Shown: one piece after another, positions 1,162 through 59,108 of the stretch | Layout of the letters: each line of letters opens with the position of its first letter | How positions within the stretch are numbered: the stretch's first letter is position 1 | Assembly: GCF_004010195.1 (NCBI RefSeq) | Contig: NC_057739.1 | Span: 7,104,897 to 7,168,896 of the forward strand | Direction: 5' to 3' | DNA from: Chiloscyllium plagiosum | Taxonomy: Eukaryota | Length of the DNA stretch: 64,000 nucleotides | Translations under genes and position numbers: made by a program | The notes under the pieces: model-generated | Database searches by the model: none | What the model saw: the letters and a program-made list of their open reading frames with translations, nothing else | Told to the model about the DNA's origin: nothing

Positions 1162-1938
1162 GTTGTGGTTATGTTCGCCGAGCTGGGAATTTGTGTTGCA
1201 GATGTTTCGTCCCCTGTCTAGATGACATCCTCAGTGCTTGGGAGCCTCCTGTGAAGCGCTTCTGTGATCTTTCCTCCGGCATTTATAGTGATTTGTATCT
1301 GTCGCTTCCGGTTGTCAGTTCCAGCTGTCCGTTGCAGTGGCCGGTATATTGGGTCCAGGTCGATGTGCTTATTGATTGAATCTGTGGATGAATGCCATGC
1401 CTCTAGGAATTCCCTGGCTGTTCTCTGTCTGGCTTGCCCTATAATAGTAGTGTTGTCCCAGTCAAACTCATGTTGCTTGTCATCTGCGTGTGTGGCTACT
1501 AAGGATAGCTGGTCGTGTTGTTTCGTGGCTAGTTGATGTTCATGGATGCGGATCGTTAGCTGTCTTCCTGTTTGTCCTATGTAGTGTTTTGTGCAGTCCT
1601 TGCATGGGAGTTTGTGCACTACATTGGTTTTACTCATGCTGGGTATCGGGTCCTTTGTCCTGGTGAGTTGTTGTCTGAGAGGTGCTGTTATGAGTCCTAG
1701 TGGTTGCAGTAGTCTGGCTGTCAGTTCAGAAATGCTCTTGATGTATAGGAGTGTGGCTAGTCCTTTGGGTTGCGGCATGTCCTCGTTCCGTTGTCTTTCC
1801 CTTAGGCATCTGTTGATGAAATTGTGCGGGTATCCATTTTTGGCGAACACATTGTATAGGTGTTCCTCTTCCTCTTTTTGCAGTTCTGGTGTACTGCAGT
1901 GTGTTGTGGCCCTTTTGAATAGTGTCTTGATGCAACTT
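1162..1938 (-). mobile_element. Penelope-like element, inverted 3' arm (GIY-YIG endonuclease region and tail)
   Basis: ORF 1218-1850(-) has VVHKLPCKDCTKHYIGQTGR...RIHEH...REFLEAWH, a PLE-type GIY-YIG domain; it is the reverse complement of 3546-4137. Confidence 0.92.
1198..1237 (-). ncRNA. Minimal type I hammerhead ribozyme motif (decayed stem III) in PLE tail
   Basis: Minus strand reads gca-CTGAGGA-tgtc..gac-GAAA-catc-tgc; the stem III CG has become CA. Confidence 0.6.
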
Positions 1939-3771
1939 GATGGGAATCCTGTGCCAACCGCCTAAGCGCCACATATGAACAACTCCGGCTCCTGCACGAA
2001 TGCCAAAAAAATCGAATCCTTCCACCATGTGTCAGATACAGACCGCCAGTCAACAACCCACAGGCCAGGGACACAGCCAGACAGAACGGACTCAGGATGA
2101 TCCAGGTAATGATTACAGACGCTCACAACAGACTTCACAAATACAGACAAGAAATTGCGTGCCAAAAATCGTTAATTTCAAAAACCACCAATCAGGAATG
2201 GACCCGGACCATAGAACAGGCCGTCACCATAGGACAGAACAGGATCACACACCGCAAAAAAAGGCACTAAAAGAAAAAATGGCCAAACTAACAGACAACA
2301 GAGAGGACACCACAACACACTTGGGTTAGAAACCTCTCCCACAAACAGCTCACGGACTCGGAAAGAACAATACTGGTCAAGGGACTCAACTACCAACCAC
2401 AGGGACGCCAAGACAGCAGACTTCCTAGCAGCACTAGAATGCACACTCAGGAACAATGGACTGACAGAAGAGACACAACAAACAGTGAGACAAAGTATCG
2501 TACCCCTGATAACAAGGAAAAGACAAACACATAACCTCAACACCAAGGAGAGGGAAGCTCTAAAAGCACTAAGAAATAATAAGAACATAATCATACTACC
2601 AGCAGACAAAGGCAGAATGACGGTCATCCTGGACAAAGCAGAGTACATCCAAAAAGCACAACAACTACTTGCAGATACCAACACCTACCAAAAGAGGGAG
2701 TTTGACCCCACCCCACCCCACAGCTCACCAATAGGATAAACAACACACTGAGGAACCTACAAAAAATGGACAGATAACCAGGTCAGACCTACAGAGAATG
2801 AAACCTGAAAGCAACAACATCCCAGATTCTATGGACTACCTAAAGTTCACAAACCAAACATCCCACTCAGACCCATAGTATCACTACCAGGGACACCATC
2901 ACACAAACTGGTTAAAGAACTACAGCAAAAACTGAAACACCTGATCAGCGGATCCAGATAATCTATACAATCAACACAGGAATTCTTAGACATAATCAGA
3001 AATATACACATAGACAAGGAAGAAACTATGGTCTCATTCGATGTAACGGCACTGTTCACCTCTATCGACAAAACCCTAGCCAGAGAAACAATAGCCAACC
3101 TGCTGGACATACAGAAGAGACAACAGGACGTTGAACCTATCAACAAAGACTGAATACTCAAACTACTGAACCTGTGCCTCACAACACACTTCACACTCAA
3201 CAACCAAATATATGAACAAATCAACGGCACACCCATGGGCTTACCCATCTTTGGACTCATAGCAGAAGCGGTAATGTAAAGATGAGAACAAACAGTCCTA
3301 CCGCAAATTCAACCCAAACTCTGGGTCAGAAATGTAGATGGCACCTTTGTAATCATTAAAAACACGGAAATAGAGAACACACACCGGATCATCAACGCCA
3401 CACTCACAGGAATCCGATTCACTAGAGAGGACGTGATGGTACAGAGAACACCGAACGGAGAATTCACCACAAAGGTTTACAGGAAAGCCACACACACAGA
3501 CCAAGTCCTGAACTACGAAAGCAACCACCCCAATACACACAAAAGAAGTTGCATCAAGACACTGTTCAAAAGGGCCACAACACACTGCAGCACACCAGAA
3601 CTGCAAAAAGAGGAAGAAGAACACCTATACAATGTATTTGCCAAAAACGGATACCCCCGCAATTTCATCAACAGATGCCTAAGGGAAAGACAACAGAACG
3701 AGGACATGCCGCAACCCAAAGGACTAGCCACACTACCATACATCAAAAACATTTCCGAACTGACAGCCAGA

Positions 3772-3828
3772 NNNNNNNNNNNNNNNNNNNNNNNNNNNNN
3801 NNNNNNNNNNNNNNNNNNNNNNNNNNNN
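3772..3828. other. Assembly gap (57 N)
   Basis: Run of N. Confidence 1.
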
Positions 3829-4057
3829 TTCGACTGGGACAACATTACTATTATAGGACAAGCCAAACAGAGAACAGCCAGGGAATTCCTAGAGGCATGG
3901 CACTCATCCACAGATTCAATCAATAAGCACATCGACCTGGACCCAATATACCAGCCACTGCAGCAGACAGCTGGAACTGACAACCGGAAGCGGCAGATTC
4001 AAACCACTATAAATGCCAGAGGAAAGATCACAGAAGCGCTTCACAGGAGGCTCCCAA

Positions 4058-4097
4058 GCACTGAGGACGTCACCTAGACAGGGGACGAAACGTCTGC
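4058..4097 (+). ncRNA. Minimal type I hammerhead ribozyme motif in PLE tail
   Basis: gca-CTGAGGA-c-gtc(acctagacaggg)gac-GAAA-cgtc-tgc: core boxes, stem II GTC/GAC, palindromic ACGT stem III, GUC cleavage triplet, stem I GCA/TGC. Confidence 0.78.
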
Positions 4098-4254
4098 AAC
4101 ACAAATTCCCAGCTCGGCGAACAGAACCTCAACAACGAGCACCCGAGCTACAAATCTTCGCACAAATCTTCGCACCTTATCTCATTTCTCTATTTTCTAT
4201 TGGCTAGCTAAGCCGCTAACTGGACTAATCTATTACCTCCAACACCACGGGCTT

Positions 4255-4470
4255 TCTTTCATTCATGGGGTGTGGGTGTTGCTGACTGGGCCAGTATTTA
4301 TTGCCCATCTCTAGTTGCCCTTGATAGGGTGGGCTTGAGCTGCTTTCTTGAGCTGCTGCAGTTTATATGCTGTGGGTTGACCTTAGGGAAGCCATTCCAG
4401 GATCTTGACCCAGCGACAGTGAAGGAACTGCAATATATTTCCAAGTCAGAATGGTCTGGAGGGGATCTTG
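4255..4470 (-). mobile_element. L2-like LINE/SINE 3' tail fragment
   Basis: 'ggccagtatttattgcccatctctagttgcccttga' recurs in degraded form at ~14330, ~31590 and ~38980. Confidence 0.5.
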
Positions 4471-4479
4471 CAGATGGCA

Positions 4480-4826
4480 ATCTGCAAGATCCAGGGATAC
4501 ACTCAAAGTCTCACTGGGGAAATGTGGCGTTCCCACAGACACCTGGGAATCACTGGCCCGAGACCATCCCAAAGTGGAGGAAGAGCATCCGGGAAGGTGT
4601 CGAGCGCCTCAGGACTTGATGTTGGGAAAAAATGGAAGCCAGAAAAAAAACAGCATAAGGAGTACGCTGCCATAGCAACGCCCCACCCACGCCTTCCCAT
4701 GACCACCTTCTGCTCCAAGTATAACAGAGCCTGCAGTAACCGTATCAGTCTGTACAGCCACCTACAGACCACCCTGAGAGGGGAAGAGAGTCATCCTTGT
4801 CTGCAAGGGGCTGCCGATATTATGAT
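4480..4826 (+). mobile_element. RTE-clade LINE 3' fragment
   Basis: Translation RDTLKVSLGKCGVPTDTWESLARDHPK/WRKSIREG plus terminal CSKYNRACSNRISLYSH zinc-finger remnant and GAT-like tail resemble RTE ORF C-termini. Confidence 0.7.
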
Positions 4827-5903
4827 TAAAATCATTTACATTTATCCATGTGGACGTTAACCATAAAAAACTCTATTGCAGCTAACGGAAAAGGATACTC
4901 CTAAGTGAGGCATGGAGACAGCACACACATACTATTAATTAAATCAGTGCACAACACAGACAACAAAATATATAAACCTTAGTTTAATCACCACAGTCAG
5001 ACCTGGAAAGCCATGTGATAACATCAGACTTGGGTTTGAAAATAAAATGCTAATTACAGAAGCAATATTAGAACAATCCAACTGGTAAGAATGGGAAAGA
5101 TCTTTATCACACAAAAAACTATTTGAATTCAAGCCATTTGTAAACACAGAGAAATGAAACATTTTCACTAAGAAAACCATTAACAGAGATTTCCTTTAAG
5201 ATTGAAAGAGTAAGTGAGAGATGGGAGAGAACAGCATAAAGCATCACAATTGAATTGGCCAGATAAAAGTTCGCAACTTATCCTCTGCTTTAGTGGAGCA
5301 GTTTATTTTCTGAAGAGAAACCCCTGGACCTTTAAAATATATGAGGCCTTCATAGCGTAGCAAAAACTTATTAAAGTTAAATAGGCTATTTGGAAGATGG
5401 AAGCATTCTCAAACAGTTCCTTCTCCTGGTTATCTACATTTTATACATCCAAATTAAATGTCTGTGAAATTAGGTAGCTTGAACTTATCATATAGAAGTG
5501 TAGTTCTGAATATGAGTTAAAAACCATTAAACAGTTCATGCCCATCCATCTCTGTAACCACTCCCTGTAATATCCTAGGATTCAATCCATCAGGTCCAGG
5601 AACATTTAGCCTTTAGCCCCATTAGTTTCCAAGGTGCTTGTTTCTCTAGTGATAGCCATTGTGTTGGTTTCCTTCCTCACTTTTGCCCCTTGCTTATTTA
5701 ATATTTATAGAATGCTATTAATGTCTTCTAATGTAAAGATTGATGCAAAGTATTTAACTCCTGTTGTCTTCTGGTTCTCCATCATTATTTATCCAAATGC
5801 ATTCTCTAACGGGCCTGTACTACTCAGGCCTTTCTCTGCCCTTTTAGATTTTTAAAGAAGCGATTGCTGTCTGTTTTTATATTACTTCCTGGTTTATCCT
5901 CGA

Positions 5904-6069
5904 CAGAGGAACCTCGGTTATCCAAAGGGCTCAGGCCGGGTGTATTTCATTCGGTTAATCGAATTCTGGATAATCAAATGCTGGATAACATAGTTTAGCC
6001 AAGCATCGGGACCTTGCGATCTTGCCGGATAATCCGATAATCGAATGCTGGATAAATGACATTCCTCTA
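5904..6069. mobile_element. MITE (Tc1/mariner-pogo type) copy 1
   Basis: TIR CAGAGGAACCTCGGTTATCC...GGATAAATGACATTCCTCT; internal sequence shared with 40680-40822. Confidence 0.7.
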
Positions 6070-8399: not shown

Positions 8400-8650
8400 C
8401 TTTTTTTATTTGATTTTGATTTGATTTATTCTTGTCACATGTACCTAGGTACAGTGAAAAGTTTTGTTTTGCATACAGTACAGGCAGATCATACCATAGA
8501 AAGTGCATAAGGGCAATAGAATAGAATGGGGAATACAATGTTACAGCTGTAGAGAAGGTACACTCAGTGCGAGATCAAATTAAATTTGAAATTTGAGAGG
8601 TTCATTCAGAAGACTAATAACAGCGGAGAGGAAGCTGTTCTTGAATCTTT
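8400..8650 (-). mobile_element. LINE 3' end with (AATCA)n-like tail
   Basis: 'tttgattttgatttgatttattcttgtcacatgtacc' is an antisense poly(A) signal plus microsatellite tail typical of L2/CR1-group ends. Confidence 0.55.
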
Positions 8651-8726
8651 CCTTTGGTATTTAGTGAATTCCAGAAGAGGAACTAAAGGTTTCCCGCAGC
8701 TTTGTTTTTTCCCTTTATTCATTCAC

Positions 8727-9226: not shown

Positions 9227-9567
9227 TGTGCACTTGTACTTGTGCTAACTAATGCAGGATAATTCAAATCCAATCTATTGTACTGAAATAGTTGAAAATC
9301 CATGGTGCTGTGAGGATGAGCATTAGAATTCTTTCATCAGTTTTAAGAGTAGGACCATTTAGGAGTGGCATCTGAGGTTCCTTATCCATTTGCAGACCAG
9401 TGGAACTCTCTCTCTTTGCTAAAAGTTTGTATGTGTTTGGGTTAATTCAAATGTTCAACAATGAGGTTGATGTATGTTTTGAGGGATATGAAGCAAAGGT
9501 GTGTAAATGGAGTTGACTTAGATCTGCTGGGGTCTAAACCGGTAGCAGTAAAGTCTTGAGTGGCTGA

Positions 9568-9741
<174 letters not shown>

Positions 9742-10876: not shown

Positions 10877-11056
<180 letters not shown>

Positions 11057-12166
11057 TAGGGATGCTGTGGGATGATGAGAGAAGTCCTTATGGAGTAACT
11101 AATAATCTTTAGTTTAATGTTACAGCATGTTGCAGTTCACTTAATCAGAAGACACTGCTGTCAGGGGCAAAATGCAGCTGTCCAAACCATTTGCGTAAAA
11201 GGAATTGCAGAGCTCCCTGGGTGGTAAAAGAGAAAAATTTGGATAAAGTAGACAAAAGTGCACTTATAACAGGGGAAAAAAATTGAAAGCAAATTTTGAA
11301 AACAAAAAATTCAGTGAAGAGTTGAAGAAGCAAATATGAAGAAAAAACTCAGCTGACATGAAAGGGAATCCCAAAGTATTTTGTGGGTATAGAGGTGTAA
11401 AAGGTGTGGCAGGTCCAAATGGGCAGCATAAAGGAGACTTACCACACAGAAGCAGAGGACACAGCAAAAGTATAAATAAGTACATCTGTCCTTACCACAG
11501 ATGAAAATGCTGCCGAGGCTATGGTAAAAGAGAAGATAATTCGGATACTGAATATTCAGAATTGAAATGGTGATGGTATTGGACAAGTTTTCTGTACTTG
11601 AAGTTGAGAAGGCACTGGGGTAAGCAGTTTCCCTCAGCCTCATTGGGTGCGAGGGTGGAAATTGCAGATATATTGTTTGTAATTTTCGTACTGAGACTAG
11701 AGGATGGTGCTGCAGCACTGGAGAATTGTATATGCTATACCGTTGTTCAAAAAAGGTTGAAGCTTTAAGTGCAGCAACTACATACCAGTCAGTTTAACTT
11801 TGTAGGAGCAGCTTCCAGAAATGATGATTTGAGGCAAAATGAATGGTTACATAGACAAATGTGGCTTAATGAAGGACAGCTTGTATGGGTTTCTTAAAGG
11901 AAAATCATGTTTAATTTGCTGGTAGTTTTTTATTTGAGAGCCGATTTATTGGGGACAATGGTGTCGATGTGCTGCCCATGGACCTCTAAAAGGTATTTGA
12001 TAAAGTGCCACAGAACTGACCTATGAGCAAAGCTAAAAATAATGAAGTGAAAGAGATAGTGGCAATGTGGGTGTTTCTCAATTTTGGGGGGCAAGGATTT
12101 TAGTTGAATTCCCCAGAGATCAGTATTGGGATTCTCGCTTTTCTTGAGGTACATTAAAGATCTAGA

Positions 12167-12364
12167 GGAAGTGAGCACTGCAGATGCTGGAGATCAGAGT
12201 CGAAAAGTGTGGCGCTGGAAAAGTGCACAGGTCAGGCAGCATCCAAGGGGCAAGAGATTTCATTCTTTCATTCCTGATGAAGGGCTTATGTCCGAAACGT
12301 TGACCCTCCTGTTCTTCAATACTGCCTGACCTGCGGTGCTTTTCCAGCGCCACACTTTTCAAAG
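12167..12364. mobile_element. Non-autonomous fold-back PLE-tail element with central hammerhead
   Basis: Inverted arms (~12202-12255 vs ~12305-12361); 13-bp TSD TTAAAGATCTAGA at 12154-12166 and 12365-12377. Confidence 0.85.
12271..12303 (+). ncRNA. Minimal hammerhead ribozyme motif, intact core
   Basis: ttc-CTGATGA-a-gggc(ttat)gtcc-GAAA-cgtt-ga. Confidence 0.72.
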
Positions 12365-12956
12365 TTAAAGATCTAGACTTTGATATACAGGGCACAGTTG
12401 CATTGTGAACTAAGTGTGATGTATAACTTGAAAAGAACAAGTTAGTGGAATGGTCGATGACCTCCAGTGCAGAGAAATGTGAATTGATTCATTCTGCTAG
12501 AAAGAATGTGGAAAAGCAATATAAATTAAAGGGTATCGCATGAGCACAGAAACCTAGATATCTAAGTACATAAGTGATTGAAGCCACAGGACAGGTAGAG
12601 CGACAAGTCATTAATGGTTTTTATTAATGGCATAGAGCACAAGAGGAAGAATATTATGTTGAGCTAGTATAAACCATTAGTTTGGACTCAGCTGCAATAT
12701 TGTATCCAGCTCTGGGTGTGAACATCTGTGAAGATTTTGGAGACTACAGAAAAGATTCAGGAGATTGGTTTCAGGGCTGAGAAAGTTGGGTAGAAAAAGG
12801 GAAGGTTATGAGGAGATTTGAAAGATATTCAGAATTATGGTGAGGTCTGTACAGAGTGGATAAGGAACAACTGTTCCCAATTGTAAAATCATCAATTGAG
12901 TAATACGAGGAAAAATGTTTTCATGTCATAGTTCATATGTGGAGAGCACTGTTTGA

Positions 12957-13817: not shown

Positions 13818-14191
13818 GCTGTATGTATTGCCATCTAGTGATAGGATCATTACATTACATGTTGAAGAAGGGCCTGTGCCCGAAACGTCGAATCTCCTGT
13901 TCCCTGGATGCTGCCTGACCTGCTGTGCTGTTCCAGCAATAAAGTTTCAACTTTGATCTCCAGCATCTGCAGACCTTACTTTCTCCTCATTACATTACAT
14001 CCCAAGGCATGATGATTGTGGCTTCATTCAATCATCCAATGAATTCATTTTGAACTGGTGATCATGTAAATGAGGCTGTATGTATTGCCATCTAGTGATA
14101 GGATCATTACATTACATCCCAAGGCATGATGATTGTGGCTTCATTCAATCATCCAATGAATTCATTTTGAACTGGTGATCATGTAAATGAG
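13818..14191 (+). repeat. 117-bp tandem duplication (filled then empty insertion site)
   Basis: 13818-13860 plus 14001-14074 is identical to 14075-14191. Confidence 0.9.
13861..13986 (+). mobile_element. Short hammerhead-headed PLE-tail element
   Basis: Begins gTTGAAGA-agggc(ctgt)gccc-GAAA-cgtc, then the shared 'gatgctgcctgacctgctgtgc...ccagcatctgcag' tail; 14-bp TSD TCATTACATTACAT at 13847-13860 and 13987-14000. Confidence 0.85.
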
Positions 14192-18250: not shown

Positions 18251-18937
18251 AAACTAGTTGCTGTATGATGAGTGAATGTGGCTTTTCACTACTGGGTCCT
18301 ATGTTTAAGTGACTGGAAACTTATTGTTCCAAACTTGTTAAGGATCTAACGTTAAATTTTGATTGTAGCTATTAACAGGAACTTAAAAAAGCATATCAGC
18401 AAATCACTTGAGTTCAAAATATGGTGTATGAAATTCACTGAGAGGTTATTTACTTTGGATCCAAGCAAAATAACAAAACTTAATGGAGAAAATCTAGGGG
18501 CCATGGAAGAGGAAATATGATGGAATGTTGATCCTCTCAAAATTCAGGTAGATAGCCATAGTTCACAAAGAACCCATTGGCACCTCTTCATTAAAAACAA
18601 TGTGGTTATATCTAGCTTGAGTGGCACCACTTAATGGGGTAAGACGAGGAGGGAGGCTCTAACATACTACCACTGTGGTGGGGATTAAGCCAGATTGAAT
18701 AATTTTGCATCACACTCGTGCTATTTGACCTGCTACTTTAGCAGAAGAATGTTCTTTGAGTCTGCTCTGTCTGTCAAAATGAATATGGCTGATGCACTTC
18801 AATTTTATCTTCCCATAGTATCTGAAAATTTCTTAGCACCAAATAATCCATTTTATTCTAGTTTTGAATTCACTCATTTGCAGATCTGTTGTAACAATTC
18901 CAAGGATCTATAACTGAGTGGAAAATTCTTAATTTAA

Positions 18938-19030
18938 GAAACAAATGGAAATTGCTGGAAAAACTCAGTAGATCTGGCAGCATGTGAACAGAAGGAGTCG
19001 ATGCTTTGAGTCCAGTGACCCTTCAAAATG
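18938..19030 (-). mobile_element. Degraded PLE-tail short element
   Basis: 'aaattgctggaaaaactcagtagatctggcagcat...tttgagtccagtgacccttc' is related in reverse to 32313-32449. Confidence 0.55.
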
Positions 19031-25906: not shown

Positions 25907-26046
25907 TAAAAAGGTAAAAACGATGACTGCAGATGCTGGAAACCAGATTCTGGATTAGTGGTGCTGGAAGAGCACAGCAGCTCAGGCAGCATCAGAGGAC
26001 AGGCAAAATCGACGTTTTGGGCAAAAGCCCTTCATCAGGAATAAAG
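25907..26046 (-). mobile_element. Short PLE-tail element with decayed hammerhead
   Basis: Reverse complement of 30909-31028; core reads CTGATGA-agggcttttgccc-AAAA-cgtc. Confidence 0.85.
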
Positions 26047-27049
26047 TCTCAAGACTGTTCCCATGAGTAAACTGGGCTAACGTTGACAACGAGCTAAGTC
26101 AGGCGCCACTAAGGCTGTAAAGTTTTGGTGACAGTGATAGGTGTTTCGATCCATAGCTGCTAATGTTGGGTGTTCATGGGGCCAGAGGTGGAAATTGTAG
26201 GGCTGGTGAAAGTCGACAGCTGAGCATATTGAGGAGCAAACCAACGTTTGATGCAAATCAGTACATTTGTCCCTCTTTCCCCATCCATTCTGATCAGAAC
26301 CTAGTTCTTGTCAGCATGACCTCCCACTCTTTTCTCTGTTGCAGGCCTGGATTTCCACCTGTATGTTGTCAGTAGGAATGAATCTCTAATTAAATGGAGA
26401 CAAAGAGAGAGCAGGCAGAATAAATATCAAAGGGGAAATAGGAAGGGGAGGGAAGACCAATGAAGGAGAAATTGGTAGTATGGAAGTTAGTGAAAGGAAT
26501 TTGTATACAGATGTTAATGGAAGGAGTCATAAAAAAGTTGGGAATGTGCGAACATGAGAAAGGAAGGACAGTAGTTAATGTGGGTGATAATGGCAAGGTT
26601 TAAAAAAAGTCTTCAGGGAGTATTCCAAATGCTAGCTGTGCTAGGATATAGTGGAATAACAGTGCCTCCTTAATCTTTTCATTTTAGAGGACAAAGTCCG
26701 AACTCTCAAGTCACCAAGTTAGTCCAAAAAGTTTATGTGAAATCATGAGCTTTTAGAGCACTTGACATCTTAGTGGAAAGAGAAAGTGAAATGATATCTG
26801 GTGTAAGTGGATTGGCTTAAAGAAGACCTTCAAAGGATATGGTTGCTTGAGGTGAATTGTCGTTGGTCTGATTTTTTTTTGTTAGTGTAGTATGTCTGTT
26901 TATTCAGCACTTAATGTTGATATTTAAGGTTGCAAGGTACATGCTGATCTCAGTTCACTGTTGTCTGTCCCTCATTGTAGGTGACTGTTTTTCACTTTGA
27001 GACAAAAATGACAGCATATTTGTGTACTTTCTTGGGGCTGTGACTTGAC

Positions 27050-27290
27050 AGAAATTCTGGGATTTAAATAATTAATCAAAGCCTGCACCCCCGTTCTAAG
27101 CGATTAAAGACTTAACAGTAATCTAGGTTTGTCTAATACGTCACATCAGTTGTACGACACTTTGATCTTGTAGTATAAATTGTCCTATGATCCTGTCCCA
27201 CTAGCTGCCTGATGAAGGAACAGCACTCTGAAAGCTTGTACTTTCAAATAAACATTGAACTATAACCTGGTGATTTTTAAACTTGTGCAC
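27050..27290 (+). mobile_element. Tail of another PLE family with hammerhead at 27206-27240
   Basis: tgc-CTGATGA-aggaacagcactct-GAAA-gctt-gta followed by AATAAA; palindromic AAGCTT stem III; stem II weakened. Confidence 0.65.
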
Positions 27291-27939
27291 ACTAGAATTG
27301 TAGTGCACCAATGTTAGAGGGAATGAATGGTTAAAGTGGTAGATGGGGCTAATCAGGTAGACTGTTTCACGTTGAAAGATTTTGAATTTCTTGTGATGTT
27401 AAACTGAGCTCTTCCAGGTGTAATGTTAAAAGATTGAACATCTCTTTTTGGATGTTAATGTAATATTAAAGGGTTAAACTGCATTGACTCCACATTCTGG
27501 AATGTGGATGACTCCAACCCCATGTAGACAGTCATTTGCTGCTACTCCCCTTACTATTATCAAATTAAACTATCATTCTAACTCTTCCATTCAGAAATGC
27601 TTTCATAGACATCTGAAGCTACAACATATCACACTTACATTATCTTGGGGAATCACTAAATCGTCTGCATAACAATTCCCTAGGATTAGGGCATTTACAT
27701 TTGCATTATTTCAGAGGATGATCTCAACCTATCTTTGTACCTGGGTTAACACGTGGCTGGGGGGTTGTCTTGAGTGATGTGACTGTGGCGGAGTGGGCAG
27801 AGCATTTGTAAGCATTTGCCAACTGATCTGTATAAAGGGGGTGTGTTTTCTTTGTTCGGGGCCTCTTTGACTCGACTTCACGTGCCTGTGAAGAGGGTCA
27901 AAGGGGTCACCTAGCTTGCACAGGCTTTAATAAGCTTTA

Positions 27940-28275
27940 GGTGAAAATGAATACTGCAGATGCTGGAAATTAATGTCAAGAGTGTGGTGCTGGAAAAGCA
28001 CAGCAGGTCAGGCAGCATCCAAGGAGCAGGAAAACCGATGTTTTGGGCAAAAGCCCTTCATTAGGAATGAGGCTGTGAGCCTTGGGGTGGAAAGATAAAT
28101 GGGGGAGAAGGTAGCTGAGTGTGCAATAGGCAGATCGAGGTCAGGATAAAGGTGATAACTCGGAGAGTGGTGTGGTGCGGTGCAGATAGATGAGAGGGAA
28201 GATGGATAGATGGGACAGGTCAGGAGGACGGAGCTGAGCTGGAAGGTTGGAATTGGGTACGGGTGCTGTTTTGCA
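27940..28275 (-). mobile_element. PLE-tail element (antisense) with purine-rich linker and decayed hammerhead
   Basis: 'ctgcagatgctgga...cagcaggtcaggcagcatcc...gggcaaaagcccttcattagg' followed by a GA-rich region homologous in reverse to 58530-58830. Confidence 0.8.
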
Positions 28276-28433
28276 GAAGTTGGTGTGTGAATTGCATGTC
28301 GTGTGTCAAACCTTGGGGAAAGAGCACAGGCAGCTAGGGAGTCTTCCTTCACCCATGTGTCTTCTATTATATATGGAGTTTGCAGCTTGTGCAGTTAGGT
28401 TACTGGAGTTGAAAAGTGTGGTGCTGAAAAAAC

Positions 28434-28755
28434 ACTAGTAACCTAACTGGGAGAAAGTGAGGACTGCAGATGCTGGAGACCAGAGTTGAAAAGTGTGGTG
28501 CTGGAAAAACACAGCAGGCCAGTCAGCATCCGAGGAGCAGGAGAATTGATGTTTCGGGCATAAGCCCTTCAGGAATGAGGCTGGTGTGCCTGCTTGGCAC
28601 ACCAGCCCCCTTCCTGAAGAAGGGCTTATGCCCGACATGTCGATTCTCCTGCTTCTCGGGTGCTGCCTGGCCTGCTGTGTTTTTCCAGCACCACACTTTT
28701 CAACTATGGTCTCCAGCATCTGCAGTCCTCACTTTCTCCCAGTTAGGTTACTAGT
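28434..28755. mobile_element. 322-bp near-perfect palindrome of two PLE tails
   Basis: Arms are reverse complements (mirror ORFs 28435-28719- and 28470-28754+); central hairpin GGCTGGTGTGCC/GGCACACCAGCC at 28579-28607. Confidence 0.92.
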
Positions 28756-29655: not shown

Positions 29656-29716
29656 GCAAACTTCTTGGAATCTCAGCTAGAATTGGGTTTGAAGTATTAC
29701 CCAGAAAATCTTAAAG

Positions 29717-31030
29717 TTCCTCCAGATCTCCTTTGAATCCTCCCACTACCTCCAGATCTCCTTCGAATCCTCCCACTTCCTCCAGACCAAAGGGGTAGCC
29801 ATGGGCACACATATGGGCCCCAGCTATGCCTGTCTCTTTGTGGGCTACGTAGAACAGTTGATCTTCCGTAATTACACCGGCACCACTCCCTACCTCTTCC
29901 TCCGCTACATTGATGACTGTATTGGCGCCACCTCGTGCTCCCGCGAGGAGATTGAGCAATTCATCAATTTTGCCAACACATTCCACCCTGACCTTAAATT
30001 TACCTGGACCATCTCTGACACCTCCCTCCCCTTCCTGGACCTCTCCACCTCCATTAACAACAACTGACTTGACACTGACATTTTTTACAAACCCACCGAC
30101 TCCCACAGCTACCTGGATTGCACCTCTTCTCACCCGTCCTCTTGCGAAAATGCCATTCCATATTCCCAATTCCTCCGCCGCATCTGCTCCCAGGAGGACC
30201 AGTTCCACCACAGAACACACCAGATGGCCTCCTTCTTTAGAGACCGCAAGTTCCCTTCCCACGTGGTTAAAGATACCCTCCAACGCATCTCGTTCACATC
30301 CTGCACATCCACCCTCAGATCCCACCCCTCCAACCGTAACAAGGACAGAACGCCCCTGGTGCTCACCTTCCACCCTACTAACCTTCGCATAAACCAAATC
30401 ACCTACCGACATTTCCGCCACCTCCAAACAGACCCCATCACCAGGGATATATTTCCCTCCCCATCCCTCTCCGCCTTCCGCAAAGACCGTTCCCTCCGTG
30501 ACTACCTGGTCAGGTCCACGCCCCCCTACAACCCACCCTGCCATCCTGGCATCTTCCCCTGCCACCGCAGGAACTGTAAAACCTGCGCCCACGTCTCCTC
30601 CCTCACCTCTATCCAAGGCCCTAAAGGAGCCTTCCACATCCATCAAAGTTTTACCTGCACATCCACTAATATCATTTATTGTATCCGATGCGGTCTCCTC
30701 TACATTGGGGAGACTGGGCGCCTCCTGGCAGAGCACTTTAGGGAACATCTCTGGGACACCTGCACCAATCAACCACAGTGCCCCATGGCCCAACATTTCA
30801 ACTCCCCCTCCCACTCTGCCGAGGACATGGAGGTGCTGGGCCTCCTGCTACTTTCTCCCCACCCCCACCCTCCTCTAGCTTATCTTTCTACGCTTCAGGC
30901 TCTCTGCCTTTATTCCTGATGAAGGGCTTTTGCCCGAAACGTCGGTGATGCTGCCTGAACTGCTGTGCACTTCCAGCACCACAAATCCAGAATCTGGTTT
31001 CCAGCATCTGCAGTCATTGTTTTTACCTCC
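29717..31030 (+). mobile_element. 5'-truncated Penelope-like element, second family: RT C-terminus, GIY-YIG, hammerhead tail
   Basis: GVAMGTHMGPSYACLFVG..LRYIDD (ORF 29801-30067), NIIYCIRCGLLYIGETGR..FREH (ORF 30224-30919); ends in the same tail as the short elements. Confidence 0.92.
30913..30945 (+). ncRNA. Minimal hammerhead ribozyme motif, intact core
   Basis: ttc-CTGATGA-a-gggc(tttt)gccc-GAAA-cgtc-gg. Confidence 0.75.
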
Positions 31031-31885: not shown

Positions 31886-32312
31886 TCTCTGGTAATGCGG
31901 AGGAATTTTAGGTTGGGGAAATTTCTGGATATAGTGGAAATCTGTTGCTTTTTGGAAGGTAGACCATTTCTCTGTGGAGGGTGTTGAGTAAATAAACTTC
32001 ATCCAGCTTGGTGAGATTGGAATTGCGAGGCCTAAATGCAGTCAGGTAAGATGGGATTTCTGTTTGAAGGACAAATTATACTCAAATTTGGACTTTTTTT
32101 TCCCCCAGAAGTGATGAATTTTGTTTTATTCAAGTTTCCACCCGATTAATTTGTCATTTACCAAGTATGAATTCTTCCATGAAGTTGAGCAATTGGGCAG
32201 TATTTGAAAACTCAGTATTTTACATTTAAATATTCAAGTAGTTTGATTAAATTATGAATATAGCTGAAAATGAGTTATTACAAATAGATTTGAAGCTAGC
32301 GTGTATATTTTC

Positions 32313-32449
32313 AGCTTTGACAAAGGGTCAGTTAGACTCGAAACATCGTCTTTTCTCTCCTTACAGATGCTGCCAGACCTGTTGAGATTTTCCAGCATTT
32401 CCTCTTTTGGTTTCAGATTCCAGCATCCACAGTAATTTGCTTTTATCCA
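32313..32449 (+). mobile_element. Short PLE-tail element, variant family, decayed hammerhead
   Basis: TTGACAA-agggtc(agtta)gactc-GAAA-catc then 'gatgctgccagacctg...gattccagcatc'; 12-bp TSD GTGTATATTTTC at 32301-32312 and 32450-32461. Confidence 0.78.
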
Positions 32450-32563
32450 GTGTATATTTTCTTACCAAGTTGAAAGACTGTATGGTCACTTTGAGAGAGC
32501 TGAACTGACAGCACGTGTATGTGACTTGCTAATAGGTGTAGGGAGCGCTGAGAATTGATAATG

Positions 32564-40822: not shown

Positions 40823-41287
40823 TATTGGTAGAATATGCATCTCAATACATTTTAGCTAATGCTTTAACTGAATTTAACGTCTGCTGGGATGTGGCCACTG
40901 TCTCCAGTTCACCCCACGATGTATTGTTAGTTGTGGAAAAAGAGGTTGAAGCAGTTATCAAAGTTTTGCATTAGAGAAATAGGCAATTTATGTTGAAATC
41001 CTGAGTTCTGATGAAAGGTCATCAAAGTGAAATGCGAACTTGCTTTCTTTCAGATACTATCTGACCTGAGTTCTCCAGCTGGAAGAATAATAAGCTGGTC
41101 GTGATAATGTCTGTAATGCCAGAAATGCTTCAGAAGGTTATATTGGTTGAAGCTTAATATTTAAAGCTTTTTTTTTTGCTTGATTTTTGTACTATTGTGA
41201 TATGGACTTGTTTCCATTTTTTTGACCAGTTTGAGTTGGAGGCATAAATTTAACATGCTGCCGTTGGGATTAATTATATTGTTTTAC

Positions 41288-45654: not shown

Positions 45655-46627
45655 GTACCGTGCCTGTGTATTTTGTGTTTAACGTGTTGGTTAGTAGGCC
45701 AGTATGGCTTTATGGATCTGAATAGGAATTTTCTAATTTAAGGTTTTATACTTGTGATTCTTTGCTTTAAGAATTGTGATTTGTATCAAGCCTAGACAAC
45801 GGAATACATTCTCAAACGTATTAAACATTCCCACAGTTGGTGTCACTTGGGTCATTTGGAGAGATCCTTTACGCCAATCTGTCTCTTGTAGGTTAAGTTC
45901 AGCACGGATTGAATGCTTGGTACAATTCACTCAGTGCACCTCCATGGTCAATGTTCTACTGAGGGCCTTCATCCACAGAAATTAAATTGAGGCTTCTGCA
46001 AACTAGGATAAAACTTGCAGGAAGATAAAGGAAAGAATTTTATTTATTCCTTCAGTGGCAATAGTTTCCATAGGCAAAAGGGCAATGATTCAAGCTACTG
46101 CATCAGCCAATTCCATGCTTAACTTTGCAGCAATGAATTCATACACTTGCAAGTTCCCTTGTTGTTTTGGTCACAGTGATTTTAGCAAGGACTCTCTTTC
46201 ACCCCCCCCAATGCTTTCTTTAGATTTGCAATTTTATTGTGTTCTTCTGTACAGAGAGAATCAAAGTTCAATTTGTAAGAACCAGATCAAACCATCATTC
46301 AGTTATGTCAAGGGGATAGCATAGACCCTAACATTTATCTTATTTAAAGGGAAGTGTAAGATGCTGTATTCCAGATGTAATTCAATTGGCTTTGCTACTT
46401 GGTGTTAACCGAAACACACTTTATTCTTTATTCTTCATTCTCCTAATCAAAATACGAACAAAAGAAGAATTGGTATAAGCTTAACTTCTGAGGAAATGTT
46501 AACTCTGATTTCCTTCCACAAATGCAGCAGTCTCCACAGATTCTGCTAGACCTGAGCTTTTCCAGCAATTTGTTTTTTTGATTTACAGCATCCACAGTTT
46601 TTGGTTTTTAATTTTAATTCTATTGGA

Positions 46628-50482: not shown

Positions 50483-51708
50483 AATATGGAATCTCAAGTT
50501 TAAGGCTCCATTTCAGGAACTCCATTAACCATGAAAATGTCAATGTTATTGTAGTAGCCAATTCAGTACAAAACAGGTATTTTCTCTATAGTTTCAAAAC
50601 TTCTCTCATATAATGAATTACTTGAGGTGGAGTGTTTTAAAAACAAAATACTGTGGGTGCTGAAAATTTGAAACAAACTATGCTGGAGAAACTGAACAGG
50701 TCTGGCAGCATCTGTGGTGAAGAGAGTTAGTTGTCAGAATAACTCTTCAGAATTCTGTTTAGCCATTACCTAGTTGTGGGATGTATTTTAAGAGGTGATG
50801 GCTTTTTGTGTATATAAAAGTATCCGTTTTTATTGGGGAACTTTTGCTAACTTGTGCCTGTGTTCTTGTGCCAATTTAAGTTCTGTTGTGCCTTGGAAAT
50901 AACACTTGTAGGCTTTTAAGTTTTATTGATAGTTGAGAATTAGAATTCTAATACTGCTACTGAGTCCAGATATTACATACATCCTGCATAAATGCAGAAG
51001 CTAATGTTAATAGGTGACTGTATTACCAATAAGGAGGTAGTGAGAATGGAAGAAGTAGGTGTTGAACATCAAAGAATAGCCCTCAAAGCAAAAATCTTGA
51101 CACCTGGTGTGGTATAATGAATTTTACAGTTTCATTAGTTACTGTATTTACACTGGCAATGTAGGTGTACAAATTATAAAGTTCAAATAAAGGTAATTAC
51201 TCTTTGTTCATTAATGACAGCAGTTAAAATACATGAAGTGAAATTCTCTTCCTAATGGGAATTCTGACATGACATTGACTGCAATGATGCAAGAACATAA
51301 TCCACTTTCTCTCACTGGCAATGAGGGATTGTGATGTATATAGCCACACCCACATTGTGAAACTTTTTTAACTTCTCATCAGGTACACATTTTTATTTTC
51401 ATCCAAAAGGGTTTTTTTCTGTTGTGTAAGCAGTGTGCGAATTGAATTAATCTGGGAGGCCTTGTTGTCAAATGGGGCAAAGATAAGGTTAGATGTAGAT
51501 GTGCCTTCTAATCTCAATACAGCAATGTAATGTATAACTCAGGCAGACAGATTTGGTTTGTTAACCCGCACTTGTAAACGGAGAAATAGATCATATCCTT
51601 TTGAAATTTCAATCCTAAGGCTCTGTTTGTATTCTTAGCTTACTTGTAGAATGCCAATTTTCTTAAACTTTATTTTTCAAAAATTAAATCTGATGCCTTT
51701 CCTTCCAG

Positions 51709-52169
51709 CTGCTCGCGACAAAGGAATCCCTATTCTTTATTCCTACATATTGCACAACTCATTGGCTTATGGAGCAGATTGGTCAAGACTATCACTTCAT
51801 CCACAGCTCAACGCTGACCATCGCCCTGTATCATCATCAGGTGAAATTCAGAGCAAAACTGAACATGAGCAAGGAGTAAAGGAAGCTAAGGTCAAGTTCC
51901 AGCACCTGAAGATTCAATACGAGTCTCCCACTGGCTTATTTGATATGGTTGTAGAAGATGAGTCAGATGATTATAGAGATGAGTTGCCTGACAGTTTGCA
52001 GGCCAGTGGTACATCTCTCCAACTGAATATGGACCCTGTAGTAAAGCAGCACAATCCTGACTCTGGTGTAAATTGGACTAAAAGTAAAGCCAGTCTTTTG
52101 GCTACATGTTCTTTTTATGACCATATCTTGCATGTTTGGAGATGGGAAAGAAGTAATATTGTCATCTAG
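51709..52169 (+). CDS. DPH7: DPH7 last coding exon (..LHNSLAYGADWS...LLATCSFYDHILHVWRWERSNIVI*)
   Basis: ORF 51651-52169; SL-x-YGADW and ATCSFYDH motifs; ccttccag| acceptor. Joined CDS is 1413 nt, 470 aa. Confidence 0.95.
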
Positions 52170-54124: not shown

Positions 54125-54925
54125 ATGTAGCTGCAGCTATAGTTCTGCAAATACAGATTCACCCCATAGACTTGTATCTGTGTGTGGTATAGTTGGATGA
54201 CCTGTGGTGTGATGTGAACCCAAGTCCCAGTTGAAGCCATCCTCATGGATACCAAACTTGGCTATCAGCCTCTGCTTGGCCACTGCGTTGTTACCTATCC
54301 TGAAGTCTGCTTTGGAGAATGGCCACCCAAAGATCTGAGGCAGAATGTCCCTGATCACTGCAACAATCAGTGACTCTGCCAATGTCTATCTCATGCTGCA
54401 GGCAAGGATGCCATGAGGCATAGTACATTGGTGACCAAGCAGATGCTACGACAAAGAATGAATGGACACTACACAACAATCATCAGACGGGTGTTCCCTC
54501 CTAGTTTGGGAACACTTCAGCAGTAAGGGACATTCAGTCTGATCTTCAGATGACTATCCTCCAAGGTGTACTTTGGGATACGCAACAGTGTAGAGTGGCT
54601 GAGCAGAGGCTGGTTGCCAAGTTCAGAACCCATGAGGATGGGCTCAAGCCATACTGCAGGAGACCCTACTACACTATCTCTCACACTGACACATGCGCAC
54701 CTGCAAAGACACTCATTCTCTCCTGTGTGCGCACACAGGTTTATGGGGTGAATTTGTACATTCTTTGTACATTTTTTTTTGCTCAAATAATGCATCTGCA
54801 ATCTCCAGGCAGTCCATTCATGTAATATTTTGTAAATTCCACTTTGAAAATAGGGCCAGTCACAGGTTGGGATACAGACAGACTCTAATCTCATGCCTGT
54901 TAATGCATTGTCGGTGCTGAAATGT
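54125..54925. mobile_element. Penelope-like GIY-YIG fragments in inverted arrangement (third family)
   Basis: Minus strand AKQRLIAKFGIHEDGFNWDLG (54137-54382) mirrors plus strand AEQRLVAKFRTHEDGLK (54550-54825). Confidence 0.72.
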
Positions 54926-55578
54926 TTTAAAACTTAGGACACTCCTACTTCTAGCTGAGGGTCATCTGTGGAATTCTCTTCCATGGAGAGCAGCAATAGC
55001 TTTTGATCATCAAGAGTTGATGGTTAGAAGTGGGGGAAAAGGGGAAGAGGTGGTGCAGACAGGAAATAGGAGTGAGGCCACAACCAGATCACCCATGACT
55101 CCAAGGAGCTCGCTTCCAACCATTCAAACTGACAACTTGTCCAGCAAGGTGCATCACTCTTTTCAGTCCAAAAGTGTTTTGACGAGGCAGCGTAACAGCA
55201 GAGAAGGTGAATGAAGAAACCAGTCCTGCACAATGGATCTCACTATCTTGTAGGTTATCCTGGCCCCATGTGCCCAAAGATCTGTCAGTTGAGAATGAAG
55301 CTTCATGGCAGAACTTAAAGCCTTAGCAGACCTCCTTGAATCTAAAGTCAGCTGATTATAATTTAGTTAAGTCTAAAACAGGTTCTTAAATCTGAACGAT
55401 GCAATAAGTATGTATTCCTTTAAAGATAAAAGCATGACAGCAAAATGTGCATCGAGAAGTTAAAGCAAGTATTACTTTACAGAAAAGAACTGAATGTTGC
55501 CACAAAGATTAGTGAGTCTAAGGAGCGAAAGAATGTGTGAATTCAGCAACACAACTCCAGATATAATGAAAGACAAGG

Positions 55579-55584
55579 TTTAAT
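55579..55584 (-). terminator. Candidate MRPL41 poly(A) signal (ATTAAA)
   Basis: TTTAAT on + strand, ~200 nt after the stop, followed on the - strand by a T/GT-rich tract. Confidence 0.5.
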
Positions 55585-55781
55585 TAAAATAAAACCATAC
55601 ACCACATGTCTGGATGTAAACACAGGACTTGACATTACTTCTCTTTCAATATTCCAGTCCAGTAAACTATAATTACTTGAGTAATAGCCAGCATGGGTGT
55701 AGTTTTAGTGAGATACTATCATACATGGCTACTACTTCCTATTTCTCTCAAAAATCAGTGTAGGAAATAATCCAATTCTTA

Positions 55782-56189
55782 TCAACGTACATAATTTTTT
55801 GGAAATAGTTGGAAGAGCTTGCCCTCTTGTGATGGCTCAAAGCCATATTTTTCAAGATTGTTCAGGTCAAAGTTCCCTTCCTGAAAGTCCTTCTCTATTT
55901 GTGGAGCAATGGTTTCTGTAAAGAGTGTCTTGGCTGTCAGAGGTTGTTCTGTTCCTTTTGGTGCTTTGTAAGACACATAGGGTTTTAGTTTAAAACCTTC
56001 TAAATTAGGGACTACGAACTCGGGCACCATTTTCCTGATTTTGATAAATTTGCCACTGGAAGTAAGTACCCCTGCTGGTTTGGCTCCGCGTGATTTGTAG
56101 AAGCTGCGGGGTCCACGCTTGCTTGTGAGTTCTGCTGTCCGGTCAGCTCCACGCACCAAACCCCGTGCCAGATTGGATAGTAATCCCAT
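55782..56189 (-). CDS. MRPL41: Mitochondrial ribosomal protein L41 (mL41), 135 aa, single coding exon
   Basis: [79 protein letters not shown]; acceptor tctttgttag| 7 nt upstream of ATG (exon starts 56196). Confidence 0.97.
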
Positions 56190-57409
56190 GTTACACCTAA
56201 CAAAGAAAGATAAGGAGAGACATAGGTGATCTGAATAGTTTCTGGAGCTAAAGTCAAGGCCTTGAAAAAATATCCCCCAAAAGTAATTTGTTGCGTTCCC
56301 AATTCAAATTCAGAAAACTTGCTCCAAGAAAGGAGTTGTGTAACAGTAACATTCAGAATAAGTGCAACACAAATGGAGATTATGTGGTGAAAAGACCTCT
56401 AAGAACAACTCCACAGGTTTCAACTGAGTTACTGAAATTAATCCTTTGGTGGTCTGGCCTTGTGTTCATATGACACCAGAATGTGATTGTCTCTAGGATG
56501 CATTCTTAAATGGCCTATTAAATGAGCAACCCATTTAGTTGCACCAAACCATTACAAAGTCTAAAATAAAAATACTACATTTACAACAGCACAAGTGTAT
56601 GTACATCACATGAACTACAGCAGTTCAAAGAATTATCAATAAATTTGGCCTCACCAGCACTATTCACACCCTGTAAGCTCATCCATAAAAAGATGGACAA
56701 TCAGAGCCATGACTATTAGAATTTCAAAGCCAGGGTGCAAGAGTTTGATCCAGTGACAATGAGGAACAGTTATATTGTTCCAAGTCAGAATGATGCAGCT
56801 TGGAGTACAACTTGGTCTTCTCATGTATTTACAGTCATCATTCTTCTAGGTACTAGACGTTATAGGTTTGGAAGATGTTGAAAAAGCATTGATAAAATGC
56901 TGCATCTTGTCGATATTTCACTGTGCAGCCATGCCATACTATACTAGTGAAAGCAGAGAATGTTTAAAGTTGGCCTGATCATGCAGCTTGATTTTATCTT
57001 GGATGATGCAAGCTTATTGGAGCTGCACTCATCCACGGGGGATTCAGCAGCGACTTCATTTACTGTCAAGGTGAGACATTCAGATTCTCTCATATGGAAG
57101 ATGATCATTCCCTGGCACAAATATAACTTGCCACTTATCAACTAAACCAAAGGCTACAATCATTTAAGTAAACAAACAAAACCTCAACTCAGACCTAAGA
57201 GGCATCCTCCTTCATTTTAAAATGTGCTCTCCGGTTCTAGACTCCCAACGAGGAGAAATAGCTTACTTGCATCTACTCTGTCTATCCCTTTAAGTTTCAG
57301 CAATTTCTCTTCAAACGGTCCCACCATCCCAGGAACATTCTTGAAGAACCTTTGTTCCCACTCCCTCCCGGTCCCCCCCGAGCCCCACGTCCTTTTCCCT
57401 GTCTCTCAC

Positions 57410-57455
57410 CATGAACCGTTCCTCCCTCTCGCTCTCCTCGCGCAGGCACGCACTG
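57410..57455 (-). other. MRPL41: Probable non-coding exon 1 of MRPL41
   Basis: Minus-strand donor ATG|GTGAGA at 57410/57409 at the edge of the CpG island; 5' end approximate. Confidence 0.6.
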
Positions 57456-57714
57456 TGCAGCAATCCGCTCCGTCATTGGTCGCCCGGCTGCGGTCCAATG
57501 GCGGTGCGGCTTGTTGCGGCTGTCCGTGGGAGCTGGCCAATGAGGAGCCGCGTCACAACAGCGGGGCAGTTGTTGGGTCAGAGGGCGGTCCCGGTGCCGG
57601 CGCCGGCCTCAAGGTGGGGGGCGGGGAGCGGGAGGAACCGAGAACCGCGGTCCGCTCACACTGTGGTCCGGCAACTGGGGCTGGGCTGGACTGGACTAAC
57701 ACCATACAGTGGCC

Positions 57715-57757
57715 ATGGAGACCGGGCCGCCGGACCCGGAGGTGATGTTTGACCCAG
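57715..57757 (+). CDS. Candidate short first coding exon of the divergent gene (METGPPDPE[VMFDP]), probably PNPLA7 by synteny
   Basis: Strong Kozak gccATGG then donors GAG|gtgatg (57742) or CAG|gtactg (57758). Identity rests only on mammalian MRPL41-PNPLA7 head-to-head order, not on peptide similarity. Confidence 0.4.
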
Positions 57758-57882
57758 GTACTGGTTCATTCAAAGGTCACCCCACCCCCCCATTCCCCAG
57801 AGCAGGGCGCCACCCCCCCCCCCCCCCTCAGAGCCGGGTATAAAAACCGGGGTGTAAACCCCACCACCCCGTCCCTCAGAGC

Positions 57883-58140
57883 CGGGGCTCAATTCCATCC
57901 TCGGGGTAACTGTCTGTGTGGAGTTTGCACGTTCTCCCCGTGTCCGCGCGGGTTCGCTCCGGTTTCCTCCCACAATCACAAAGATGTGCAGGCCAGGGTG
58001 AACTGGCCAGGCTAAATTGCCCCACAGTGTTCGGTGCATCAGCCAGAGGGAAATGGGTCTGGGTGGGTTACTCCCCTGAGGGTCGGTGTGGACTGGTTGG
58101 GCCGAAGGGCCTGTTTCCACACTGTACGGAATCCAATCTC
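57883..58140 (+). mobile_element. HE1-like SINE
   Basis: Core 'gtctgtgtggagtttgcacgttctccccgtgtc' and tail 'gggccgaagggcctgtttccacactgta'. Confidence 0.85.
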
Positions 58141-58456
58141 TCAGAGCAGGGTGTGAAAGCCACCTTCCCTCGGAACTGTGTATGATCTGCACCCTCCCTC
58201 CCTCCCTCCCTTGGAACTCGGTATAACCCCCTCAGAGCCCAGTCTAAGACCTCCCTCCCTCAGATCCAGTAATTAATCCCAACCCCCCAGGCAGCCAAGA
58301 ATAATGCCCTCCCTCAGGTCTCCGTATAACCCCCATTTCCTTCATAGCTGGGTACAGCCCCCCAATTTTACCTCCCTCCCTCCGTGCTGAGAAACCCACA
58401 CCCTAACCTCAGAACTGTGTATAACCCTCACCACAAGCTCAGAGCGGGGTATAACA

Positions 58457-58830
58457 GCACTTTAGGGAACATCTCCGGGACACCCGCACCAATCAACCCC
58501 ACCGCCCCGTGACCGAACATTTCAACCCGCTCAGCACCATCCTCATGACCTATCCTACCTGCCAATCTTCCTTCCCACCGATCTGCTCCATCCTCCTCTC
58601 CGACCTATCACTTTCATCCCCACCTCCATCCACCTATTATACTTTTGGCTACCTTCTCCCCAGCCCCATTTATCTCTCCATCCCAGAGGCTCCCTGCCTC
58701 ATTTTTGATGAAGGGCTTTTGCCCAAAATGTCGATTTTCCTGCTCCTCAGATGCTGCCTGACCTGCTGTGCTTTTTCAGCACCACTCTAATCTAGACTCT
58801 GATCTCCAGCATCTGCAGTCCTCACTTTCA
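58457..58830 (+). mobile_element. PLE 3' fragment (GIY-YIG end, pyrimidine linker, decayed hammerhead tail)
   Basis: 58457-58527 matches 30732-30803; TTGATGA-agggcttttgccc-AAAA-tgtc at ~58705-58732. Confidence 0.85.
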
Positions 58831-58942
58831 TCGGGTATGACATCCCTATCCTCCCTCAGGGCCAGGTGTAAACTCCTGACCTCCTCCTGCAGATATTGGT
58901 ATAACCCCCACCCTCCTCAGAGCCAGATATAACCCCTTCCTC

Positions 58943-59108
58943 TGAAAAACTACAAATCTGGAGATCACAGCCAGTCAGACAGCATCCATGGAGAGAGACA
59001 GCAAGCTAACGTTTCGAGTCTTGATGTCTTTCCATGGATGCTGTCTGACCCACTGTCATTTCCAGTATTTTCTGTTTTCAGTACAGATTCCAGTATCTGC
59101 AATAATTA
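58943..59108. mobile_element. Fold-back PLE-tail element (variant family)
   Basis: 'gtcagacagcatccatgga' and 'tccatggatgctgtctgac' inverted arms around half-hammerhead 'aacgtttcgagtc'. Confidence 0.72.

Follow-up and report, generated by a model that had tools for sequence, protein, structure and literature searches.

What are the short hammerhead-bearing inserts found throughout the genome of the shark Chiloscyllium plagiosum? The question is raised by a stretch of 64,000 nucleotides (contig NC_057739.1, positions 7,104,897 to 7,168,896, forward strand), here called the window. An earlier note, made from the letters alone, described about ten hammerhead motifs in it. It assigned them to Penelope-like elements (PLEs) and to retrozyme-like, non-autonomous derivatives present at very high copy number. 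We find that the minimal hammerhead motifs are real and extremely abundant. The short inserts are 90–130-base copies of a ribozyme-bearing end module. Judged by their sequence, they are likely dead-end stubs of a known kind of PLE rather than a separate family of mobile ribozymes.

Four families of Penelope-like elements carry the hammerheads

Positions within elements are counted from C3, the first base of CTGANGA, as position 0. Our strict core descriptor demands CTGANGA, a stem II of at least 3 bp and GAAA-X-X'-T-H. In the window it returns precisely the four cores that had been called intact (4061+, 12274+, 27209+ and 30916+). One hundred dinucleotide shuffles of the window gave a mean of 0.05 and a maximum of 1. 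The genome measures 3.56 Gb and was sampled at random as 40 blocks of 40 kb at round-number positions (1.562 Mb excluding N). The first 0.976 Mb of this sample held 63 strict cores versus 0–2 in five shuffles, and extrapolation from the sample gives about 230,000 genome-wide.

The motifs have the CUGANGA and GAAA boxes, an NUH cut triplet and a loopless palindromic stem III (ACGT or AGCT), as the earlier note had read them. Their identification as the minimal type I hammerheads of PLEs is supported. Stems I and II covary, with compensatory changes in two families. In family A, 88% of cells are paired with nine two-sided changes, and none of 500 shuffles match. In family C, 93.5% are paired with five two-sided changes, and 7 of 500 shuffles match. 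Rows are related by descent, so these shuffle counts support the fold but are not probabilities. Folded as monomers, one of four short cores does better than its shuffles, and the hammerhead is the predicted fold in none of the four. Rfam hammerhead models gave no match in the window at E≤5. Among copies, mismatch rates are 2.8% in the core, 21% in loop II, 17–25% at CpG sites and 5.3% in the flank, the last value being biased low because the anchors lay in the flank. This pattern shows CpG decay of copies, inside the core too, and not selection on copies.

Three stem II families had been proposed. There are four, named A to D here; the core at 32317 represents the fourth, with a GGGTC/GACCC-type stem II. 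The supposed long loop of the GTC/GAC type is really a 7-bp stem with a tetraloop. All four families have copies joined to a coding body with reverse transcriptase (RT) and GIY-YIG endonuclease (EN) domains. Among copies that extend upstream, sense-strand PLE protein matches lie within 1.5 kb upstream in 28/32 of family A, 27/65 of B, 4/38 of C and 3/9 of D. RT precedes GIY-YIG in one open reading frame, upstream of the pseudo-long terminal repeat (pLTR), as in endonuclease-positive PLEs. Partial tandems, inverted copies, optional tails and target-site duplications (TSDs) are all seen. These features support insertion by PLE enzymes, as had been suggested. A cysteine-rich linker between RT and EN is present in B, C and D and absent from A. 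This linker is a clade criterion (PMC8557442). By its presence or absence, A is classed as Poseidon-like and B, C and D as Neptune-like. A search with an N-terminal protein stretch found open frames of 1,200–1,350 amino acids at many family B loci. The family B frame is 87–88% identical to annotated proteins of Chiloscyllium punctatum.

Very high copy number, also claimed before, is borne out. With score cut-offs applied, the full sample yields 535 segments in 426 insertions (B 213, C 80, A 38, D 95), or one per 3.7 kb. End modules make up about 3.7% of the sampled sequence. A rough extrapolation from these 426 insertions in 1.56 Mb gives about 1 million genome-wide. The genome contains 63,689 instances of one exact 30-nt family B core and 0 of its control. 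Two further motifs, CTGAAGA...GAAAATTA, lie about 1 kb apart at L102:2999 and L102:4038 (-). They fit the descriptor and belong to none of the four families.

In family B, short inserts match the 5' leader

The family B module runs from the core at 0 through a predicted cut after +28 to 3' ends near +90 and +126. An AUG follows at +164 in five of five measurable copies, 38 nt past the long 3' end. Hence, a stub of this family corresponds to the 5' leader of the element RNA. Many stub boundaries are confirmed by TSDs, found at 25 of 92 solo copies versus 0–2 with mismatched flanks.

The 5' ends of family B pile up at the upstream edge of the core. Among copies reaching +5, 123/191 end in +5 to -10 (0.040 per nt), with a mode at -4. 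The rate is 0.0035 per nt near the cut site (13/247 in +40 to +26) and 0.006 per nt further upstream (20/68 in -11 to -60). Pile-ups in +5 to -14 are also seen in family C (30/71) and family D (41/49). A TATA-like box precedes the modal 5' end by about 31 nt in B and C and, by eye, in D. In family B it is a TTTATCT-like box at -37 to -34 (44/54 body-linked copies), and in family C it is TATAA at -40 to -35 (19/27 copies). Families B and D have TCATTC or TCAGTT with the A at -4. We take this to resemble an initiator, presuming the usual initiator consensus and TATA spacing.

Extra G at full-length L1 5' junctions marks cap copying (PMC11702581). Genome-wide, breaks at -4 before ATTCC carry G in 3,440 cases versus A or T in 2,587. 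With recognisable inverted junctions removed (34/100 and 35/100 among the matches listed), the G ratio is 1.35 versus 0.35 by base composition. The commonest inverted junction, 26 of the 39 minus-strand matches listed (hand count), is that expected for a cap-derived C on complementary DNA (cDNA). The extra G is suggestive evidence that a cap may be copied.

Copies that span the AUG end all along the leader. Ends are mildly enriched at 0 to -17, without a clear peak at the cut site, and between one third and one half of the copies that reach the core continue upstream. A candidate signal of in vivo cleavage just after the cut site was rejected; by a hand count, about 9/50 end in +28 to +38 (0.016 per nt) versus about 0.012 and 0.011 per nt either side.

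Inverted insertions pair a long arm with a short one

Many insertions are head-to-head pairs, and these follow a rule. In family B, 51 of 63 pairs join an arm with the long 3' end to one with the short end; one is long+long, three are short+short and eight could not be classed because one arm is too short (p=2e-10 for the 55 that could). The same combination leads in family C (18 of 25, with one long+long and two short+short) and family D (11 of 20, with three and two, respectively). Raw TSD calls were obtained for 33/42 pairs in the first sample, the mismatched-flank control covering solos only. The stopping point lies further downstream in long arms (median +6) than in short ones (median -3; p=0.011). 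Twin priming on one RNA predicts inverted pieces consisting only of tail, and such a piece is found on 4/45 apparent short solos. Together, these pair features fit two nicks priming at two sites of what would be one RNA. The idea that each pair combines two different RNAs was rejected. Arms of young pairs are 96–100% alike, and the 8/57 'discordant' pairs are old or short.

The palindrome at 28392–28752 of the window contains an inverted copy of its own target site, which suggests that it formed by fold-back copying. Fold-back may have contributed to other pairs too. At L032:5733-5916, an arm of family B and an arm of family D stand head-to-head with only a weak TSD; if this was a single event, it used two different RNAs. 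About 30% of family B insertions are head-to-head (63/213). Hence, the RNA of such copies in introns would fold into long double-stranded hairpins in which the ribozyme is sequestered.

Probable run-off from a capped RNA and its rivals

How do the stubs arise? Probably, most are made by reverse transcription that starts inside the 5' leader and runs off the front of a capped RNA. Transcription would start 4–8 nt before the core, about 31 nt after the TATA-like box. After a staggered cut by the endonuclease, each nicked strand would prime at one or the other start site, with a single RNA probably serving both. The two copies would extend to the RNA end and then be joined, while one primer alone would leave a solo stub. 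The templates would be RNA uncut by the ribozyme. Stubs lack the upstream box, and most would be dead ends. The ribozyme itself is predicted to act as a dimer on tandem transcripts. In PLEs, hammerhead cleavage is dimeric, weak or protein-assisted (PMC4209133; PMC11167929).

Several observations weigh against this account. Family A has no pile-up (3/36 in +5 to -14), 5' ends scatter over about 25 nt and the box of family B departs from a canonical TATA. Copies extending past the AUG frequently continue upstream (10/30, two of them deletion junctions, and 8/40 in another set), so not every template ends there. In the sample, breaks of all kinds are rich in G, and the G test does not reach significance (13 G versus 14 A/T at the predicted start, 30 versus 60 at other breaks, p=0.18). 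The genome-wide G count is inflated by deeper-ending inverted arms, which are purine-rich; three of six sampled 'non-inverted' G cases proved inverted or tandem. Finally, the Penelope promoter of D. virilis is internal and TATA-less (PMC2377424); with such a promoter the stubs would keep it.

Ordinary 5' truncation is a possible, if doubtful, alternative. Here, reverse transcription would begin in the downstream pLTR of a tandem transcript and be held up at the folded ribozyme or at the pyrimidine tract just upstream, so that 5' ends gather at a pause site and not at an RNA end. Published accounts of PLEs include extensive 5' truncation, inverted copies and tails on one side (PMC8557442, PMC3846280). 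The end rate does climb gradually across the core from +20, but it drops about sevenfold just upstream of -10. About one third of family B copies run further upstream, as truncation allows. Against a pause, the mode lies at the same distance past the TATA-like box in B and C, whose sequences differ, and family A, with the longest stem II, shows no pile-up. The G evidence divides likewise, with a non-significant test in the sample and an excess genome-wide.

A bolder variant of run-off, which we think unlikely, is that the stubs are trapped 'strong-stop' cDNAs. In this variant, the ribozyme would sit at the 5' tip of the RNA, and cleavage in the downstream pLTR would leave the same ~32 bases at both ends. 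These would form a repeat like the R region of retroviruses, used for strand transfer. A cDNA that jumped would give long and partial-tandem copies, and failure to jump would give a stub. Out-of-register jumps amount to two clear cases among 75 solos in -20 to +30, and like deletions also occur upstream. If true, the variant would assign a definite role to PLE hammerheads and account for how pLTRs form, and several hundred thousand genomic fossils could serve to test it.

The earlier note favoured retrozyme-like, non-autonomous elements with a lineage of their own. Stubs would then be transcribed independently, either as retrozyme monomers or through an internal promoter, and PLE proteins would mobilise them again in trans. 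We consider this improbable. Nothing lies upstream of -20 in 284/426 insertions, and in the old family D the figure is 86/95. One family B loop variant has seven short and no long copies. Mobilisation in trans requires no more than pLTRs (PMC3846280); these are also the source of non-LTR retrozymes, which are found in one chondrichthyan genome (10.64898/2026.07.22.740005). Yet only 4 head-to-tail pairs occur among the 535 segments (assembly gaps may hide arrays), where retrozymes would be tandem units. Short and long copies are interleaved on the family B tree, with 31 label changes versus a shuffled mean of 34.4 (42/500 shuffles as low; 88 columns, weak resolution). Two sets of identical short and long rows occur on this weakly resolved tree, and these few columns yield no well-supported clade of short copies only. 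The 5' boundary is not single, and no ends fall at the cut site. Family D too has body-linked copies among the nine tested, and it is the one remaining candidate for a separate short lineage.

One tandem junction, +146 to about -33, recurs beside assembly gaps at L282 and L303 and has six exact copies in the genome. Small tandem units are possible at these two places. A mobile tandem unit was rejected at that copy number.

The earlier note expected repeat annotation to label the stubs as generic short interspersed nuclear elements (SINEs). They align full-length to the pLTR and belong under PLE ends. Rfam models for tRNA, 5S and 7SL gave no match in the window in this check for SINE heads, in which RNA polymerase III boxes were not searched.

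That the upstream boundary is a splice acceptor or other processing site, as in D. virilis, where an intron ends at stem I (PMC4209133), is very improbable; several family B subfamilies have a pyrimidine tract and an AG 8–24 nt upstream, but the AG position varies among subfamilies, stubs share no upstream exon and target sequence adjoins the 5' end.

Comparison with known systems

Published features include minimal hammerheads standing alone in truncated PLEs, inverted copies, tails at one end and promoters in the pLTR (PMC4209133, PMC8557442, 10.64898/2026.07.22.740005). The PLE minimal hammerheads of Cervera and De la Pena 2014 (PMC4209133) resemble ours in their core boxes, the one unpaired base before stem II, G10.1-C11.1, the palindromic 15.2/16.2, the lack of loop 3 and the short stem I. 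There too, most motifs are single and tied to truncated PLEs. The scale differs, our exact and strict core counts standing against about 4,000 in coelacanth and 9,000 in Xenopus, with differing descriptors. In the parts of that paper covered, no shark is named and stub ends are not mapped.

Endonuclease-positive PLEs show 5' truncation, inverted pLTRs, TATA and initiator motifs in the pLTR and solo pLTRs (PMC8557442, PMC3846280), and all of these occur here. Their tail is 30–40 bp at one end; ours is about 35 nt. Our data add numbers for the long+short rule (51/55) and for the pile-up at the upstream edge of the core.

The closest comparison in vitro is PAc, a Poseidon of Anolis (Frangieh et al. 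2024, PMC11167929). As here, two internal start sites define its tail, both strands are extended, uncut RNA is preferred and no reads fall at the cut site. The bulk PAc data showed no difference between the strands in start site, whereas single insertions here use one site per end. The PAc sites lie inside the reading frame; those of family B both precede the AUG.

Non-LTR retrozymes (PMC7229834; 10.64898/2026.07.22.740005) are, like the stubs, non-coding and pLTR-related, with a type I hammerhead and long TSDs. They are tandem units that yield circular RNA, whereas the stubs are solo or head-to-head with minimal motifs. Twin priming in L1 (PMC11702581) likewise has a second nick that primes on the RNA and leaves an inverted piece. 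Unlike L1, insertions here have a fixed second site, mostly overlapping arms and no poly(A) tail. Neither these shark families nor run-off stubs turned up in our literature search, whose scope did not include Repbase, Dfam, most subscription papers or preprint supplements.

The value of the stubs is statistical. By extrapolation, the insertions record about a million times where PLE reverse transcription starts and stops in vivo. This record backs the in vitro evidence for RNA templates left intact by the ribozyme and for priming on both target strands. It adds that the two ends of one insertion use different start sites, and it predicts the RNA start to within a few bases. The many full-length open frames suggest recent activity. 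Hence, the role of PLE hammerheads should be testable in a shark system. For annotation, stubs should be filed as PLE ends.

Elements of the window

The window holds the following elements.

1160..1961, minus: family A (Poseidon-like) inverted arm with thumb/GIY-YIG end and pLTR, short 3' end; 94% match to the plus arm
1198..1237, minus: family A minimal hammerhead, decayed, GAAACATC
2533..4172, plus: family A forward arm with broken RT, GIY-YIG end (gap 3772-3828), pLTR with TATAAA at -53, and tail
4058..4097, plus: intact minimal hammerhead of family A with stem I GCA/TGC and a 7-bp stem II; the cut is predicted after 4094
12154..12377, plus: family B head-to-head insertion, core 12274; the inverted long arm at 12165-12257 covers +125 to +31, the forward short arm at 12268-12362 covers -6 to +90; 13-bp TSD 12154/12365
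13847..14000, plus: family B solo stub 13863-13986 (+1 to +125); 14-bp TSD 13847/13987
18923..19024, minus: family D stub, old, core partly lost
25913..26046, minus: family B solo stub (-8 to +126), G12 of the core mutated, no TSD found
26682..26762, minus: stub
27028..27300, plus: family C copy, intact core 27209, preceded by about 180 nt of pLTR in which TATAAA occurs
27944..28242, minus: family B copy, decayed core 28064, preceded by at least 179 nt of element sequence
28392..28752, no strand: family B palindrome made up of a short-end fragment (28402-28435), an inverted long arm (28450-28590) and a forward long arm (28588-28739); 13-bp TSD 28392/28740
29699..31027, plus: family B (Neptune-like) 5'-truncated element with RT end, Cys linker, GIY-YIG with deletion, pLTR, core 30916 and tail
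32301..32461, plus: family D solo stub 32313-32449, decayed core; 12-bp TSD 32301/32450
41004..41077, plus: doubtful, very decayed family D-like remnant; 21 bits, no TSD
46493..46601, plus: family D remnant, core mostly lost
50647..50720, minus: family D remnant without core
58444..58830, plus: family B copy with GIY-YIG end fragment upstream, decayed core 58705
58951..59105, no strand: family D head-to-head pair without the 5' half of the core

Eight of the decayed cores first described are present where they had been placed (1234-, 13862+, 26038-, 28064-, both arms of 28434-28755, 32317+ and 58705+). That at 13862 begins at +1 and lacks C3. The call at 41007/41008+ is doubtful, as it carries CTGATGA...GAAA without a palindromic stem III and has a profile score of only 21 bits. 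The stubs at 18923, 26682, 46493, 50647 and 58951 add to the first list. Two motifs had been placed at the 3' ends of elements; upstream element sequence is in fact found at six (1234, 4061, 27209, 28064, 30916 and 58705). In the 30916 copy, about 14 nt are deleted directly after the cut site, and this loss breaks the stem I partner. Non-coding insertions with TSDs of 12–14 bp had also been described. Four such TSDs stand, and none was found at the other 11 of the 15 elements tested.

An exact direct duplication of 88 nt with 117-nt spacing occupies 13987-14191, beginning at the 3' TSD of the 13863 stub. It may be a local duplication or an assembly artefact. An open reading frame of about 136 codons from the first Met, at 55782-56190 (-), matches mitochondrial ribosomal protein L27 (PF09809, E 2e-34). 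A GC-rich, promoter-like stretch lies at about 57350-57750, and the stubs of 58444-59105 are about 1 kb away. An unrelated RT fragment of the long interspersed nuclear element type is found at 60270-61115 (-) (RVT_1, E 1e-17).

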